Positions 2,363 to 26,026 of a stretch of 64,000 nucleotides of DNA are shown in pieces (the first letter of the stretch is position 1; each line of letters starts with the position of its first letter). The notes beneath the pieces are model-generated. The model was not told the origin of the DNA, ran no database searches, and worked only from the letters and a program-made list of their open reading frames with translations. The position numbers were made by a program, and so were the translations under genes. The DNA comes from a phage: NCBI GenBank assembly GCA_013585095.1, contig GCA_013585095.1_3039.1. The stretch is one strand, 5' to 3'.

Positions 2363-2671
2363 GTGAAACAAAACAAGATTGAAGTATATGGAATTCCAGA
2401 TGAAGTAGGTCGTTGTCCTGGATGTCAATCAGTTACAAAACTTCTAAAGGAGCTCAATGCTCCTTTTACTTTCTATAAAGTTCTTACAAATAATGGTAAG
2501 ATTGAGTATGATCGTCCGCTGATTGTATCTCTTGCTAAACGCGCTGGATTCACATCTCTTAACATTCGTTATCCAGTCATTTTCATTAATGATTCTAGAC
2601 AAAAGAACATTAAACACTTCAAAGAAACTCTCATTTCACTTGGATATGATAGAGATATCATAGAAGACTGA
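2363..2671 (+). CDS. nrdH: glutaredoxin-like protein (NrdH-type)
   Basis: 102 aa; CPGC redox motif near N-terminus; GTG start after AGGA; position next to nrdG. Confidence 0.7.
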   Translation: MKQNKIEVYGIPDEVGRCPGCQSVTKLLKELNAPFTFYKVLTNNGKIEYDRPLIVSLAKRAGFTSLNIRYPVIFINDSRQKNIKHFKETLISLGYDRDIIED

Positions 2672-2674
2672 GAC

Positions 2675-2698
2675 GGGCCCTCTGGGCCTTTCTTTCTT
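2675..2698 (+). terminator. rho-independent terminator-like hairpin
   Basis: GGCCC-tct-GGGCC stem followed by TTTCTTTCTT. Confidence 0.5.
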
Positions 2699-2769
2699 AC
2701 ATTCTGTATATTACCATTCTAAGCTATCGTTCCCTTCTTATCATTCCCTAAAATAATTTTCACAAAGTT

Positions 2770-2799
2770 GTTTACAACGAGCTCAAACTGTGGTATTAT
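2770..2799 (+). promoter_or_regulatory. early sigma70-type promoter
   Basis: GTTTACA, 17-bp spacer, TGG-TATTAT extended -10; upstream of ORF at 2830. Confidence 0.6.
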
Positions 2800-2829
2800 T
2801 AACACATGAATTACCTTTGAGGAATTGAT

Positions 2830-3012
2830 ATGGTTGTGGTTGATAAAGAAATTAAAAAGGGACAGTATTATCTCATTAATGGTAATGCTGTTCGTGTTAC
2901 TCATGTAAATAGTTTTGAAGTTTGCTATATTATACTCAAGTTACATAAACACATGATTTGTGATCGTGCTGTATTTAGTTCAGTTGCTAAGGAAATTAAA
3001 CTCCATGGGTAA
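2830..3012 (+). CDS. hypothetical protein
   Basis: 60-aa ORF with GAGG SD; downstream of early promoter. Confidence 0.4.
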   Translation: MVVVDKEIKKGQYYLINGNAVRVTHVNSFEVCYIILKLHKHMICDRAVFSSVAKEIKLHG

Positions 3013-3298
3013 AACGTATCGTCGTAAAGACTTGAAAGTTCGTGATTATGACTATTTCGGAAAGCGTAAAGCTCCTGATGGGGTAAGTCATAAAGATATG
3101 GTTGAAAACATTTTTCGCTCAGATAAATGGCGTAGAATGAAAGGTATTGATTCAGAAGTTAAAGATGAGCTAAATCGCCAATTACGTGGTGAAGTAAGAA
3201 AGTTGAAAAAATCAGTTTACATTGACGATGATTTTGATTATAATACTTCTCAACGAGTTGCTAAACGTAAATCAAACGAGTGTTATCGTTACAGCTGA
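3005..3298 (+). CDS. hypothetical basic protein
   Basis: ORF-track 2960 (GTG) trimmed to first ATG; Lys/Arg-rich. Confidence 0.4.
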   Translation: MGKTYRRKDLKVRDYDYFGKRKAPDGVSHKDMVENIFRSDKWRRMKGIDSEVKDELNRQLRGEVRKLKKSVYIDDDFDYNTSQRVAKRKSNECYRYS

Positions 3299-11296: not shown

Positions 11297-11983
11297 ATGA
11301 AACTGTCTAAAGATACCACTGCTCTGCTCAAAAATTTCGCTACTATTAACTCTGGTATTATGCTTAAATCCGGTCAATTTATTATGACTCGCGCGGTTAA
11401 TGGTACAACTTATGCAGAAGCAAATATTTCTGACACTATTGATTTTGATGTAGCGATTTACGATTTGAACGGTTTTCTCGGTATTCTGTCTCTAGTTAAT
11501 GACGATGCAGAAATTTCCCAGTCAGAAGATGGAAATATTAAAATTGCTGATGCCCGTTCAACAATTTTTTGGCCAGCAGCTGATCCGAGTACAGTAGTTG
11601 CTCCTAATAAACCAATTCCATTCCCGGTAGCATCTGTTGTTACCGAAATTAAAGCTGAAGACCTTCAACAACTGTTGCGTGTATCTCGTGGTCTGCAGAT
11701 TGATACAATTGCTATCACAGTAAAAGAAGGTAAAATCGTAATTAACGGTTTTAATAAAGTAGAAGATTCTGCTTTGACCCGCGTTAAATATTCTTTGACT
11801 CTTGGTGATTATGATGGTGAAAATACATTTAATTTCATTATCAATATGGCAAATATGAAAATGCAACCAGGAAATTACAAACTTCTGCTTTGGGCAAAAG
11901 GTAAACAGGGTGCTGCTAAATTTGAAGGTGAACACGCGAATTATGTAGTAGCTCTTGAAGCTGATTCTACCCACGATTTTTAA
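11297..11983 (+). CDS. 45: sliding clamp gp45
   Basis: 228 aa; T4 synteny before 44/62. Confidence 0.93.
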   Translation: MKLSKDTTALLKNFATINSGIMLKSGQFIMTRAVNGTTYAEANISDTIDFDVAIYDLNGFLGILSLVNDDAEISQSEDGNIKIADARSTIFWPAADPSTVVAPNKPIPFPVASVVTEIKAEDLQQLLRVSRGLQIDTIAITVKEGKIVINGFNKVEDSALTRVKYSLTLGDYDGENTFNFIINMANMKMQPGNYKLLLWAKGKQGAAKFEGEHANYVVALEADSTHDF

Positions 11984-21358: not shown

Positions 21359-22786
21359 GTGGTAGAAATTATTCTTTCTCATCTTATATTTGATCAAGCT
21401 TATTTTTCAAAAGTTTGGCCATATATGGATTCAGAATATTTTGAAAGTGGTCCAGCTAAAAATACGTTCAAATTAATTAAATCTCATGTTAATGAGTATC
21501 ATAGCGTTCCATCTATTAATGCGTTAAATGTTGCATTAGAAAATAGTTCATTTACTGAAACAGAATATTCTGGTGTAAAAACACTTATTTCAAAACTGGC
21601 TGATTCTCCAGAAGACCACAGCTGGTTAGTAAAAGAAACAGAAAAATATGTTCAGCAAAGGGCGATGTTTAATGCTACGTCTAAAATAATCGAAATTCAA
21701 ACTAATGCTGAGCTTCCTCCGGAAAAACGAAATAAGAAAATGCCAGATGTAGGTGCTATTCCTGACATCATGCGGCAAGCATTATCTATTTCATTTGATA
21801 GTTACGTTGGTCATGATTGGATGGATGACTATGAAGCACGTTGGCTATCTTATATGAATAAAGCTCGTAAAGTTCCATTTAAACTCAGAATTCTAAACAA
21901 AATTACTAAAGGCGGAGCTGAGACTGGAACACTGAACGTTTTAATGGCTGGCGTTAACGTTGGTAAATCATTAGGATTGTGTTCATTAGCAGCAGATTAT
22001 TTACAGCTCGGACATAATGTTCTTTACATTTCCATGGAAATGGCAGAAGAAGTCTGTGCTAAGCGTATTGACGCTAACATGCTTGATGTTTCTCTTGATG
22101 ACATTGATGATGGGCATATTTCTTACGCTGAATATAAAGGAAAAATGGAAAAATGGCGTGAGAAATCTACCCTTGGTCGTTTAATCGTTAAGCAATATCC
22201 TACTGGTGGAGCAGACGCTAATACATTTCGATCACTTTTAAATGAATTGAAGCTCAAGAAGAATTTTGTTCCAACAATCATTATTGTCGACTATCTAGGT
22301 ATTTGTAAATCTTGCCGCATTAGAGTTTATTCAGAAAATAGTTACACAACTGTTAAAGCTATTGCAGAGGAATTGCGTGCTCTTGCTGTTGAAACCGAAA
22401 CTGTTCTTTGGACTGCAGCACAGGTTGGTAAACAAGCTTGGGATTCTTCTGATGTTAACATGAGCGATATTGCAGAATCTGCTGGTCTTCCAGCAACAGC
22501 TGATTTTATGCTTGCGGTCATTGAAACCGAGGAGCTAGCAGCTGCTGAACAACAACTCATTAAGCAAATCAAATCACGATATGGTGATAAGAACAAATGG
22601 AATAAGTTTTTGATGGGTGTTCAAAAAGGAAATCAAAAATGGGTAGAAATTGAACAAGATTCTACTCCAACCGAAGTGAGTGAAGTAGCAGGTTCACAAC
22701 AGATTCAGGCTGAACAGAATCGCTATCAAAGAAATGAATCCACTCGAGCTCAGTTAGATGCTTTGGCAAATGAATTAAAATTTTAG
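21359..22786 (+). CDS. 41: replicative DNA helicase gp41 (DnaB-like)
   Basis: 475 aa; Walker A GVNVGKS; GTG start after AAGGAG. Confidence 0.93.
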   Translation: MVEIILSHLIFDQAYFSKVWPYMDSEYFESGPAKNTFKLIKSHVNEYHSVPSINALNVALENSSFTETEYSGVKTLISKLADSPEDHSWLVKETEKYVQQRAMFNATSKIIEIQTNAELPPEKRNKKMPDVGAIPDIMRQALSISFDSYVGHDWMDDYEARWLSYMNKARKVPFKLRILNKITKGGAETGTLNVLMAGVNVGKSLGLCSLAADYLQLGHNVLYISMEMAEEVCAKRIDANMLDVSLDDIDDGHISYAEYKGKMEKWREKSTLGRLIVKQYPTGGADANTFRSLLNELKLKKNFVPTIIIVDYLGICKSCRIRVYSENSYTTVKAIAEELRALAVETETVLWTAAQVGKQAWDSSDVNMSDIAESAGLPATADFMLAVIETEELAAAEQQLIKQIKSRYGDKNKWNKFLMGVQKGNQKWVEIEQDSTPTEVSEVAGSQQIQAEQNRYQRNESTRAQLDALANELKF

Positions 22787-22844: not shown

Positions 22845-23027
22845 ATGGAATTGGTAAAGGTAGTTTTTATGGGGTGGTTTAAGAATGAAAGCATGTTTAC
22901 TAAAGAAATCACAATGATGAAAGATGACGTTCAATGGGCTACTACTCAATATGCTGAAGTTAATAAAGCATTAGTTAAAGCTTTCATTGATGACAAGAAA
23001 GTGTGCGAAGTGGATTGCCGAGGATAA
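22845..23027 (+). CDS. dmd: Dmd-like protein (T4 61.5 position; antitoxin against RnlA/LsoA in T4)
   Basis: 60-aa ORF immediately downstream of gene 41 with GAGGAG SD; assignment by size and position only. Confidence 0.5.
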   Translation: MELVKVVFMGWFKNESMFTKEITMMKDDVQWATTQYAEVNKALVKAFIDDKKVCEVDCRG

Positions 23028-23028
23028 T

Positions 23029-23286
23029 ATGCATATTGTTTTATTTAAACCTACTCCGTATAACGTCAGGAAAAATACTCAATTCAAAGCACTTATTGCA
23101 GATACGTGGGAATTGGTGTTAGATATTCCAGCAGAAGAAAGTCCTCCATTTGGTCGAGTGGAATTTATTAAGTTTGCTGTACGTCCTACGAAGAGGCAGA
23201 TTCGTCAGTATAAAAGGTATTTTCGTAAAATCGTTAAGCTAGAGAAACAGTTTGTAACATGTGATTACGCAGAAGTTTTAAAATAG
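23029..23286 (+). CDS. hypothetical protein (T4 61.4 position)
   Basis: ORF-track 22987 trimmed to ATG after GAGGA; 85 aa. Confidence 0.45.
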   Translation: MHIVLFKPTPYNVRKNTQFKALIADTWELVLDIPAEESPPFGRVEFIKFAVRPTKRQIRQYKRYFRKIVKLEKQFVTCDYAEVLK

Positions 23287-23346: not shown

Positions 23347-23640
23347 ATGAAAAAATTTATTTTTGCTACAATTTTTACTTTGGCTTCTTGTGCTGCTCAG
23401 CCTGCTATGGCAGGATATGATAAAGATTTGTGTGAATGGTCTATGACTGCAGATCAGACTGAAGTTGAAACTCAAATTGAAGCGGATATTATGAATATCG
23501 TTGAGCGTGATCGTCCTGAAATGAAAGCTGAAGTGCAAAAACAACTTAAGTCTGATGGTGTAATGCAGTATAATTATGTTCTGTATTGCGATAAAAACTT
23601 TAATAACAAAAATATCGTAACCGAAATCACAGGCGAATAA
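23347..23640 (+). CDS. sp: Sp (spackle)-like periplasmic protein
   Basis: 97 aa; 22-residue signal peptide MKKFIFATIFTLASCAAQPAMA; two Cys in mature part; assignment by size, signal peptide and position. Confidence 0.5.
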   Translation: MKKFIFATIFTLASCAAQPAMAGYDKDLCEWSMTADQTEVETQIEADIMNIVERDRPEMKAEVQKQLKSDGVMQYNYVLYCDKNFNNKNIVTEITGE

Positions 23641-23641
23641 T

Positions 23642-24274
23642 ATGATTTATTATATGCACAAAAATCCACCGTTTAAATACGGTAAATTTCCTGATGCACA
23701 ATGTTATAATATAACGCCTGATGAAAATAACCGTGGATATCTTATTGGCACAATTTTTGTAATTGTTAAAGATAACGAAATCGTTGCCTGGGCAGATTTT
23801 AAAGGTACAACATATGATGTTAATCCGGTGCCTTTCACATATTACAATTTAATGGATTTGGCATACGATTATAATTGGTTTAATCATGACACTTTGGCTC
23901 ATATTGAAGGTGTAGGATTTGATATTTCATATTCGGAATACACTTTAAGCCCTATGAGTCGAGCCCATAAAGAACCTGAATATTTTTCATTTAGGAAACG
24001 TGTAAACTTTAAACGCAGCACAGAGTATGTCGGTGGAATCTTTGTTAAAGATAATCGAATTATTCGTATTAATTATCCTTTGAGCGTTAGTCAAAAAGAT
24101 ATTGATGTTGATTTAGATTTCACTGAAAATAATATTAATAATATTGCTTCTGTGTATTTTGGTATCGATCACAAAATTGTAATATGTGGATATGAATTAC
24201 CGTTTGAAGAACAGCCTAAAGTAAAAGTTTCTATTGACGATCAAATTTTTAATGCTTTTATGAATAAAGGTTAA
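23642..24274 (+). CDS. hypothetical protein (T4 61.2 position), internally duplicated
   Basis: 210 aa; two VKDN-containing modules; C-terminal SIDDQIFNAFMNKG shared with next ORF. Confidence 0.55.
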   Translation: MIYYMHKNPPFKYGKFPDAQCYNITPDENNRGYLIGTIFVIVKDNEIVAWADFKGTTYDVNPVPFTYYNLMDLAYDYNWFNHDTLAHIEGVGFDISYSEYTLSPMSRAHKEPEYFSFRKRVNFKRSTEYVGGIFVKDNRIIRINYPLSVSQKDIDVDLDFTENNINNIASVYFGIDHKIVICGYELPFEEQPKVKVSIDDQIFNAFMNKG

Positions 24275-24275
24275 T

Positions 24276-24632
24276 ATGTATAGTTCTGAATTTTCATATT
24301 TAAAAATGGAAAAAATTTCATACGATTTCATAGATGAAAAGGTTTATTACAGTTTCCATGAACCGCGTTTTAATAGTGAGGTTGGGTTTATTGTAGTAAA
24401 AGACAATTTCATTTTAAAGATATATTCGGCATTAAAGGATTTTCACTACGAAAATATTAACCTAAAATTTGATAAAGAAAACGTTCGTAATTGTGCAGTA
24501 ACAATTACAGGAAATAAAGGTACATGTGTTATGCTATCTGATGAAATTAATGATTTACTAAATGATGCAGAAAATATTACTGCGCCATCTATTGATGACC
24601 AAATTTTTAATGCTTTTATGAATAGAGGTTAA
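24276..24632 (+). CDS. hypothetical protein, paralog of upstream ORF (T4 61.1 position)
   Basis: 118 aa; one VKDN module; C-terminal SIDDQIFNAFMNRG. Confidence 0.55.
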   Translation: MYSSEFSYLKMEKISYDFIDEKVYYSFHEPRFNSEVGFIVVKDNFILKIYSALKDFHYENINLKFDKENVRNCAVTITGNKGTCVMLSDEINDLLNDAENITAPSIDDQIFNAFMNRG

Positions 24633-24633
24633 T

Positions 24634-24798
24634 ATGAAAACATATAAAGAATTTATTAAAGAAGATATGGTCGCTGGAGATTCAGGTGGTAATCCTGAAA
24701 ATATCTCTACTGGAACAACGTCAGGCGCTGTAGTAAATAAAGGTCCTGAGCAGATTCCTAAAAAGAAAAAAGAGGAATCTAAAGAAAAAGAAGAGTAA
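24634..24798 (+). CDS. hypothetical small low-complexity protein (54 aa)
   Basis: ATG 2 nt after previous stop; Gly/Lys/Glu-rich; read from sequence. Confidence 0.3.
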   Translation: MKTYKEFIKEDMVAGDSGGNPENISTGTTSGAVVNKGPEQIPKKKKEESKEKEE

Positions 24799-24800
24799 AA

Positions 24801-25829
24801 ATGTCATCAATACCTTGGATTGATAATGAGTTTGCGTATCGTGCATTAGCTCATTTACCTAAATTCACACAAGTAAATAATAGTTCAACTTTTAAATTAC
24901 GGTTTAGATGCCCAGTTTGTGGAGATTCAAAAACCGACCAGAATAAAGCCCGTGGATGGTATTATGGTGATAATAATGAAGGAAATATTCATTGTTATAA
25001 CTGTAACTATCATGCACCAATCGGAATATATTTAAAGGAGTTTGAACCTGATTTATATCGTGAGTATATCTTTGAAATAAGAAAAGAAAAAGGTAAAAGT
25101 CGTCCAGTAGAAAAACCTAAAGAACTTCCTAAACAACCTGAGAAGAAAATAATTAAATCTCTTCTGTCATGTGTTAGATTAGATAAACTGGCGGAAGACC
25201 ATCCAATTATAAAATATGTAAAAGCTCGTTGTATTCCAAAGGATAAATGGAAATATCTTTGGTTTACAACCGAATGGCCTAAATTAGTTAATAGCATAGC
25301 ACCGGGAACATACAAAAAGGAAATTTCTGAGCCTCGTCTTGTTATTCCAATTTATAATGCTAACGGAAAAGCTGAGTCTTTTCAAGGACGTGCATTAAAG
25401 AAAGATGCTCCACAAAAGTATATCACCATTAAAGCTTATCCTGAGGCAACAAAAATATATGGAGTAGAACGAGTTAAAGATGGTGATGTATATGTTCTAG
25501 AAGGACCTATAGATTCACTTTTTATTGAAAATGGTATAGCTATTACGGGTGGTCAATTAGACCTAGAAGTTGTTCCATTTAAAGATAGACGAGTGTGGGT
25601 TTTAGATAATGAACCTCGTCACCCTGACACTATCAAACGAATGACTAAATTAGTTGATGCAGGAGAAAGGATTATGTTTTGGGATAAATCTCCCTGGAAA
25701 TCTAAAGATGTTAATGATATGATTAGAAAGGAAGGTGCAACCCCTGAACAAATTATGGAATATATGAGAAATAATATTGCCCAGGGGTTGATGGCTAAAA
25801 TGCGGCTATCTAAATATGCTAAGATTTAA
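24801..25829 (+). CDS. 61: DNA primase gp61
   Basis: 342 aa; N-terminal zinc ribbon CPVCGDS..CYNCNYH; TOPRIM-like region. Confidence 0.92.
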   Translation: MSSIPWIDNEFAYRALAHLPKFTQVNNSSTFKLRFRCPVCGDSKTDQNKARGWYYGDNNEGNIHCYNCNYHAPIGIYLKEFEPDLYREYIFEIRKEKGKSRPVEKPKELPKQPEKKIIKSLLSCVRLDKLAEDHPIIKYVKARCIPKDKWKYLWFTTEWPKLVNSIAPGTYKKEISEPRLVIPIYNANGKAESFQGRALKKDAPQKYITIKAYPEATKIYGVERVKDGDVYVLEGPIDSLFIENGIAITGGQLDLEVVPFKDRRVWVLDNEPRHPDTIKRMTKLVDAGERIMFWDKSPWKSKDVNDMIRKEGATPEQIMEYMRNNIAQGLMAKMRLSKYAKI

Positions 25830-26026
25830 ATTAACCCAACCAAAGCAAATGCTAAATCTACGAATGTATCAAGAGTAATTACTGGAATATTAACACCATG
25901 AGCAATAGCAATTGGTGATAAAACAAAATTCCAGAGTAAAATTCCTATCATAGCAGAAATAGTAAAAGCTATACGTTTTTTATTACCTTTTATGGCATTA
26001 ACAAGTGCCATTAATTTTTGTACCAT
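25826..26026 (-). CDS. hypothetical two-helix membrane protein, convergent with gene 61
   Basis: 66-aa ORF; AAGGAGG SD 4 nt before ATG; 3' end overlaps gene 61 stop by 4 nt; fills an otherwise non-coding gap. Confidence 0.5.
   Translation of the reverse strand: MVQKLMALVNAIKGNKKRIAFTISAMIGILLWNFVLSPIAIAHGVNIPVITLDTFVDLAFALVGLI

Follow-up and report, generated by a model that had tools for sequence, protein, structure and literature searches.

Few phage proteins are known that block toxin-antitoxin (TA) defence by direct binding, and AdfA, the product of T4 gene 61.2, is among them. DarT, the toxin that this anti-DarT factor is named for, modifies single-stranded DNA (ssDNA), and AdfA binds DarT1 when residue 164 is histidine rather than arginine (RB69 numbering, which follows the RB69 adfA start set by the primers of the same study; PMC11257639). 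The gene belongs to a region, comprising dmd, tifA, sp and adfA, that has been termed an 'anti-TA island' (PMC9391042). Here we describe the corresponding locus in a 64,000-nucleotide (nt) stretch of phage DNA (GCA_013585095.1, contig GCA_013585095.1_3039.1), referred to below, in its full length, as the window. At this locus, an open reading frame (ORF) of 210 amino acids (aa) at 23642-24274 is followed on the same (+) strand by an ORF of 118 aa at 24276-24632, and the two proteins end in nearly the same peptide. We lean, somewhat beyond an even judgement, towards the view that both inhibit toxins by binding them, with a head that varies and a tail that docks and stays constant, and that the DNA encoding the tail acts as a portable gene junction.

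The closest described system is AdfA itself (T4 gp61.2, RB69 AdfA; Pfam PF23813). The 210-aa ORF matches it over the full length and occupies the same locus, and the 118-aa ORF has its C-terminal domain and tail; however, the 118-aa protein is devoid of the entire N-terminal domain, and neither T4 nor RB69 possesses such a gene. Dmd, which inhibits RnlA, and TifA, which inhibits ToxN, resemble these proteins in being small early products of the same island (PMC9391042), and, like AdfB of the vibriophage ICP1, they work through toxin binding, whether demonstrated or presumed (PMC11257639). In contrast, these three inhibitors show no kinship in sequence or fold to the AdfA superfamily (family searches on the window proteins returned no cross hits) and none of them has been reported with a shared C-terminal peptide. 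AdfN (T4 30.3, a NADAR enzyme) and AdfM (T4 tk.4, a macrodomain) counter the same defence family in the same phages, but they are enzymes that remove ADP-ribose from DNA, whereas AdfA-type proteins act by binding, and fold searches with the latter gave no enzyme-like match. With regard to gene order, Krisch and colleagues reportedly described promoter-stem-loop ('PeSL') cassettes and the modular shuffling of small ORFs in T4-type genomes. The likeness is that a short repeat marks the boundaries of small early genes that are present in some genomes and absent from others; the difference is that the repeat described here is the coding sequence of a conserved peptide together with a stop codon, a ribosome-binding site and a start codon, and not an intergenic promoter with a stem-loop. 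What is new at this locus is a widespread single-domain paralogue family, a tail that is invariant across three families, and tail DNA that forms the gene junction.

AdfA and a single-domain paralogue

The 210-aa ORF matches PF23813 with 461.7 bits (cut-off 27, E-value 3e-139), its residues 1-210 aligning with profile positions 1-211. It lies between sp and 61.1, upstream of the primase gene 61, as T4 61.2 does, and its product is 73% identical to T4 gp61.2; one related record already labels the orthologue 'anti-DarT factor A'. These observations identify the ORF as AdfA, an already-known anti-DarT factor, in keeping with what the original prediction had said of the T4 61.2 product (PMC11257639, PMC9391042).

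That prediction had further placed the two ORFs at the T4 61.2/61.1 position and read them as tandem paralogues. The position holds for the 210-aa ORF but not for its neighbour: the true 61.1 orthologue is the 54-aa ORF at 24634-24798 (+ strand; phrog_1823, E-value 7e-34, and T4 annotation), T4 has no counterpart of the 118-aa ORF, and phrog_1823, the T4 gp61.1 family, is not among the PHROG matches of the 118-aa ORF (phrog_4122, E-value 2e-72, and also phrog_3781 and phrog_8539). Since in T4 61.2 is directly followed by 61.1, the 118-aa gene constitutes an extra cassette. The paralogy itself stands. BLASTP aligns the 118-aa protein with AdfA residues 111-210 at 37% identity over about 100 aa (E-value 6e-11), and hhalign recovers the relationship after removal of the tail (probability 88.5%, E-value 2.7e-6). 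The match to the Pfam AdfA profile (31.9 bits, cut-off 27) covers only profile positions 113-211, that is, the C-terminal half; more distant members of the short family score 22.5-26.1 bits, under the cut-off. AdfA residues 1-110 have no counterpart in the 118-aa protein, which therefore does not have the two-domain architecture of AdfA. Judged by these comparisons, the 118-aa protein and the C-terminal half of AdfA are true paralogues.

The AlphaFold2 model of AdfA (mean predicted local distance difference test score, pLDDT, of 68) consists of an N-terminal domain (residues 1-98, 23642-23935) built from five strands, a helix and a strand (E2-8, E20-25, E38-43, E46-51, E57-64, H67-77, E87-90), and a C-terminal domain (residues 99-196, 23936-24229), homologous to the 118-aa protein, in which the elements recur (E100-105, E114-119, E132-136, E139-145, E152-159, H162-173, E179-181). 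Both halves thus present the same order of elements at a steady offset of about 94 residues. The AlphaFold2 model of the 118-aa protein (mean pLDDT 79.6) has a single domain, in which five strands precede one helix, one further strand and a second helix (beta5-alpha-beta-alpha), and then the tail. A VKDN motif occupies the beta3/beta4 turn in every case, the two copies in the larger protein and the single one in the smaller having been noticed from the outset: residues 42-45 (23765-23776) and 135-138 (24044-24055) of AdfA, within the modules IFVIVKDNEIV (residues 38-48) and GIFVKDNRIIRI (132-143), and residues 41-44 (24396-24407, between strands E34-42 and E45-51) of the 118-aa protein, within GFIVVKDNFILKI (residues 37-49). 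The two adfA copies share a 13-nt exact DNA match, although a repeated 4-mer such as VKDN is by itself not significant. The internal duplication that had been proposed for AdfA on the basis of these modules receives divided support: the order of secondary-structure elements matches, but BLASTP detects no similarity between the N- and C-terminal halves and hhalign gives a weak signal (probability 16%, P 0.0016), in register at VKDN. A duplication is therefore plausible and not proven, the matching order of predicted elements being suggestive.

The short gene shows a ratio of nonsynonymous to synonymous substitution rates (dN/dS) of 0.07 against T2 and 0.35 against phage Elenatom, is found at full length in 337 phage records, and has intact orthologues in another genus at 43-49% identity. 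These values indicate that it is under purifying selection and functional. In Elenatom (locus extract 1168-2151), adfA is broken into ORFs of 98 and 64 aa and the adjoining 119-aa short gene is intact; loss of adfA and loss of the short paralogue are independent of each other.

The invariant C-terminal tail

Both window proteins carry an invariant tail of 12 residues and end in SIDDQIFNAFMN[K/R]G, the C-terminus being SIDDQIFNAFMNKG in the 210-aa protein and SIDDQIFNAFMNRG in the 118-aa protein; as first noticed, the two ends are nearly identical, and they agree at 13 of the 14 residues. Across 14 AdfA sequences of 61-100% identity, in an unbiased alignment, D199-N208 is unchanged, and across loci six of the eight degenerate codons of the DDQIFNAFM core vary synonymously with zero amino-acid change. 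When the short gene is compared between the window (Tequatrovirus) and VR25 (Gaprivervirus), the tail has a dS of 1.5 and a dN of 0.06, about nine-fold below the dN of the body (0.53). RB69 encodes the same peptide with other codons (ATA, GCA, CGA). Between the two paralogues of the window, the tails have a dS of 0.35 and the bodies are saturated at synonymous sites. The substitution pattern indicates that constraint on the peptide and constraint on the DNA both act on the tail and that the peptide dominates; this protein-level constraint means that the tail identity is not merely a gene-conversion artefact, the outcome that the original prediction had named as contrary to it.

The tail is also carried by a third family. 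VR25 has two genes at the same locus, the first for a 145-aa protein and the second, an orthologue of the short gene, for one of 119 aa, and the products end in SVDDQIFNAFMKRD and AIDDQIFNAFMKRG, respectively; in Dhakavirus and several IMG/VR contigs, the 145-aa family occurs without the short gene. In profile comparisons between the 145-aa family and AdfA only the tail matches, and the predicted structure of the 145-aa protein resembles the 118-aa model (Foldseek E-value 4e-4, TM score 0.55), so that the three tail-bearing families appear to share one fold. A HMMER scan of 1.84 billion representative proteins returned just 10, all T-even-like, which argues that the superfamily is small and confined to T-even-like phages; among the proteins found, two very divergent short-family bodies (P0025 and P0028) carry an identical DDQIFNAFMNRG tail. 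Two word-indexed searches for wider homologues gave close relatives only, NCBIfam gave none, and a look-up in the structure database returned no solved structure for AdfA or the tail peptide.

In the 118-aa model the tail forms a helix (residues 106-115, pLDDT 53-59) that follows residues 102-105 with pLDDT below 50, and in the AdfA model, too, a low-confidence helix is predicted, at residues 198-207, behind a segment of this kind (tail pLDDT 49-59 across both models), which makes the linker look disordered. Directly N-terminal of the tail, insertions and deletions of 0-10 residues are seen in the AdfA alignment and by hhalign. Variable linkers of this kind are typical of a tethered motif, and they speak against the most serious alternative, which we regard as unlikely: that the tail belongs to the structure of a common fold, or serves its oligomerisation, and packs on its own or a partner's beta-sheet with no third party to dock on. 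It would then be no more than the secondary-structure element that is best conserved in a homologous domain. Such an element would fit the single fold that all three families appear to have, and a helix as strongly hydrophobic as this one (I, F, A, F, M) needs some surface against which to be buried; the low pLDDT is, moreover, weak evidence of flexibility, because the alignments supplied to AlphaFold were shallow. However, a helix packed in the core should co-vary with the bodies, which are only 18-37% identical, whereas the tail is invariant on all of them and changes its amino acids some nine times more slowly than the body.

Tail DNA as a gene junction

The tail-coding DNA, whose near-identity had also been remarked on, forms a 49-nt direct repeat at 24230-24278 and 24588-24636, identical at 46 of 49 positions (94%), with the copies 358 nt apart, one gene unit. 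A search with a 43-nt degenerate pattern allowing up to three mismatches found only these two copies in the window (0.00 expected from 100 shuffles). The first copy comprises the codons of SIDDQIFNAFMNKG, the stop codon, a Shine-Dalgarno-like AAAGG and the ATG of the 118-aa gene; the second comprises those of SIDDQIFNAFMNRG, the stop codon, a Shine-Dalgarno-like AGAGG and the ATG of 61.1. The final tail codons, A[A/G]AGGT TAA T ATG, hence combine the Shine-Dalgarno sequence, the stop codon and the start of the next gene. The junction between the short gene and 61.1 is identical in the window to the T4 61.2/61.1 junction. No stem-loop was seen at the repeat.

The same DNA resembles a middle promoter, for which the MotA consensus is (a/t)(a/t)(a/t)TGCTT(t/c)A, 11-13 nt, TAnnnT (PMC1524935). 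A putative element, found by a relaxed pattern scan, consists in the first copy of AATGCTTTT, 12 nt and TAATAT (24251-24277) and recurs in the second (24609-24635); TAATGCTTT-T agrees with the MotA box at 8 of 9 positions, with a 12-nt spacer and TAATAT as -10 element, the relaxed pattern having been written after the element was seen. The annotation of phage Lutter has a 'promoter' at the position equivalent to the first copy, and the T4 RefSeq entry has no promoter feature at the tail DNA; no experimental record of a MotA-dependent 5' end there was found. It could be argued that the near-identity of the tails is mainly a matter of DNA, gene conversion preserving the likeness of a MotA-type promoter and of the next gene's ribosome-binding site and start codon, with a peptide of little function. 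The single mismatch to the consensus, the Lutter annotation, the double use of the last tail codons and a tail dS between the window paralogues far under that of their saturated bodies all suit this explanation. We consider it quite improbable nonetheless. Gaprivervirus and Dhakavirus have GCC TT[T/C], and RB69 has GCA TTT, in place of the GCTT core, and all of them retain the peptide; synonymous sites of the tail are saturated between genera and there is almost no replacement change. Furthermore, the -10 element overlaps the next start codon, and from this geometry a transcript would be expected to begin within the first codons of the next ORF and to be unable to serve it. A promoter thus cannot explain the conservation, and we rejected it as the cause. 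Strict matches to the MotA consensus are, for comparison, well represented in the window, with six on the + strand and one on the - strand against 0.26 expected per strand; these matches lie in intergenic DNA, and of those on the + strand (6023, 10610, 11240, 42385, 59852 and 62991) at least three (6023, 10610 and 11240) are just upstream of ORF starts, such as that of the 228-aa gp45 ORF at 11297.

Gene content at the locus is polymorphic among relatives. If adfA is denoted A, the short gene B and the 145-aa gene C, the arrangement is A in T4 and T4-like genomes, B in T2 and T2-like ones, A-B in the window, C-B in VR25 and C in Dhakavirus. Among the records of the phage collection, 487 contain full-length AdfA, 337 the short gene and 158 the adfA-to-short-gene junction; it follows that about 330 genomes have adfA only and about 140 (136-140) the short gene only. 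In T2-like phages the short gene is the sole member of the family, and its T2 product is 97.5% identical to the 118-aa protein of the window. The 12-nt spacer between sp and the short gene in T2 (locus extract 1789-1800), TTAGAGGTTAGT, resembles the last bases of the tail (AATAGAGGTTAAT), and may be the Shine-Dalgarno end left behind when a tail-bearing gene in front of the short gene was deleted. Since T4 recombines in this region at homologies of only 6-10 base pairs (PMC9391042), the 49-nt repeat would be a plausible site for the in-frame gain and loss of cassettes.

An apparent three-cassette array in Yersinia phage phiD1 was set aside: the record (locus extract 1329-2237) shows adfA, a short gene, a partial short gene and another short gene, but N bases are numerous in the repeated stretch, and the record is unreliable. 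Either the assembly went wrong at the tail repeat, or the population was mixed and included a tandem amplification.

Proposed toxin binding, the possible role of the tail, and the island

In the explanation that we favour, the locus is a two-member array of AdfA-superfamily genes within the T-even 'anti-toxin island' (dmd, tifA, sp, adfA). AdfA comprises two similar predicted beta5-alpha-beta domains and a C-terminal helix, and the short gene encodes a stand-alone C-terminal domain with the same helix. Each protein would bind a host toxin and inhibit it stoichiometrically; the toxin would most likely be a variant of the DarT-type ADP-ribosyltransferases, and target specificity would come from the variable body. 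The invariant, amphipathic and flexibly tethered tail (DDQIFNAFM) would dock on a constant surface, which may be a conserved part of the toxin family or a shared partner from the phage or the host. The 49-nt block that unites the tail codons with a stop codon, a ribosome-binding site and an ATG would serve as a portable gene junction, and homologous recombination between its copies would add or remove whole cassettes in frame, thereby producing the arrangements A, B, A-B, C and C-B.

The position that corresponds to residue 164 of RB69 AdfA (R164/H164) is Asn167 in the window AdfA (codon 24140-24142, + strand, placed by alignment). It falls in the predicted helix 162-173, after beta5 of the C-terminal domain, the very domain that is kept in the short protein. 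Most AdfA alleles have His at this site and the RB69-type P0018 has Arg; the Asn167 allele is common to the 44 phage records whose AdfA is at least 99% identical to that of the window.

Several points weigh against the explanation just given. At the site where alleles that neutralise DarT1 have His, the window AdfA and the 118-aa protein both have Asn. T4 can do without AdfA against DarTG1 (PMC11257639) and against DarTG2 too, which it resists by means of tk.4/AdfM. T2 has been described as being without adfA, and T2 lacking adfN is sensitive to DarTG1 (PMC11257639); because T2 carries the short gene, these data argue indirectly against neutralisation of that E. coli DarT1 by the short protein at native expression. 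Homology, purifying selection, tail invariance, the polymorphic arrangements and the repeat are shown, whereas toxin binding by the 118-aa protein, docking by the tail and the mechanism of recombination are inferred. As for the tail, its low pLDDT may reflect only the shallowness of the AlphaFold alignments (12-14 sequences), its very hydrophobic helix could pack on its own domain or mediate oligomerisation, and its low dS next to saturated bodies implies that DNA-level homogenisation or constraint also acts within Tequatrovirus.

The T4 experiments bear on the tail in a further way. The published adfA deletion is 61.2 delta65-196 (PMC11257639, strain table); in the T4 gene (locus extract 2633-3259, - strand) this leaves residues 197-208 in place, and these are DDQIFNAFMNRG, the invariant tail core. 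An activity that depends on the tail was consequently not removed in the T4 experiments that gave no phenotype. A bolder version of the docking proposal, which we hold to be distinctly doubtful, takes DDQIFNAFM as a short docking motif in which the interchangeable, fast-evolving heads of the AdfA, 118-aa and 145-aa families sit on a fixed handle that engages one constant partner (a surface common to DarT-like ADP-ribosyltransferases or a phage replication protein on ssDNA), the DNA of the handle being the recombination site at which heads are swapped. If this were true, a handle-dependent activity may have escaped notice, given that T4 61.2 delta65-196 keeps the motif.

A more specific placement of the tail, as a peptide that docks on the replisome (for example, on the gp45 sliding clamp) and so brings inhibitors to the ssDNA on which DarT acts (PMC11257639), strikes us as very improbable. 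The genes do sit between those of the helicase and the primase, and the tail, with S-I-D at its start and many aromatic residues, bears a loose resemblance to the SLDFL[FY] ends that gp43 and gp55 have in the window; yet the spacing does not fit (SIDDQIFNAF against SLDFLF) and the tail is predicted to be helical. The gp45-clamp motif was rejected on the same comparison, gp43 ending in SLDFLFG and the tail, SIDDQIFNAFMNRG, being spaced differently. Finally, the possibility that part of adfA was duplicated and is now decaying, as a functionless 118-aa ORF, is strongly disfavoured, for although the match is limited to the C-terminal half of AdfA and T4 lives without the gene, its low dN/dS, its full length in 337 records, its standing as sole family member in the T2-like genomes, its intact orthologues in a second genus and its confident, compact fold model all contradict decay.

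The neighbouring genes bear out the original prediction that the cluster also holds dmd and sp. On the + strand, the gp41 helicase gene (21359-22786) is followed by dmd (22845-23027), 61.4/tifA (23029-23286) and sp (spackle, T4 61.3; 23347-23640; Pfam T4_Spackle, E-value 9e-45), the immediate upstream neighbour of adfA, and the gp61 primase gene (24801-25829) follows 61.1. The region is 99.7% identical to that of the Escherichia phage teqdroes and about 99% identical to those of many other Tequatrovirus genomes. Gp61.1 also matches the C-terminal end of phrog_2086 (profile positions 109-154 of 156, E-value 2.6e-16), which hints that 61.1 may be present elsewhere as the tail of a longer protein. 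A hydrophobic 66-aa ORF on the - strand (25826-26026) overlaps the end of the primase gene 61; in relatives it carries the annotation of a hypothetical or predicted membrane protein.

By these results, AdfA is a member of a small superfamily, specific to T-even phages, whose proteins have one or two domains and all carry the same invariant tail. Some 140 sequenced phages, including T2, which had been described as lacking adfA, have the short form only. The locus also offers a clear example, within a phage counter-defence island, of a coding sequence that doubles as a gene junction and, on our proposal, as a recombination module.

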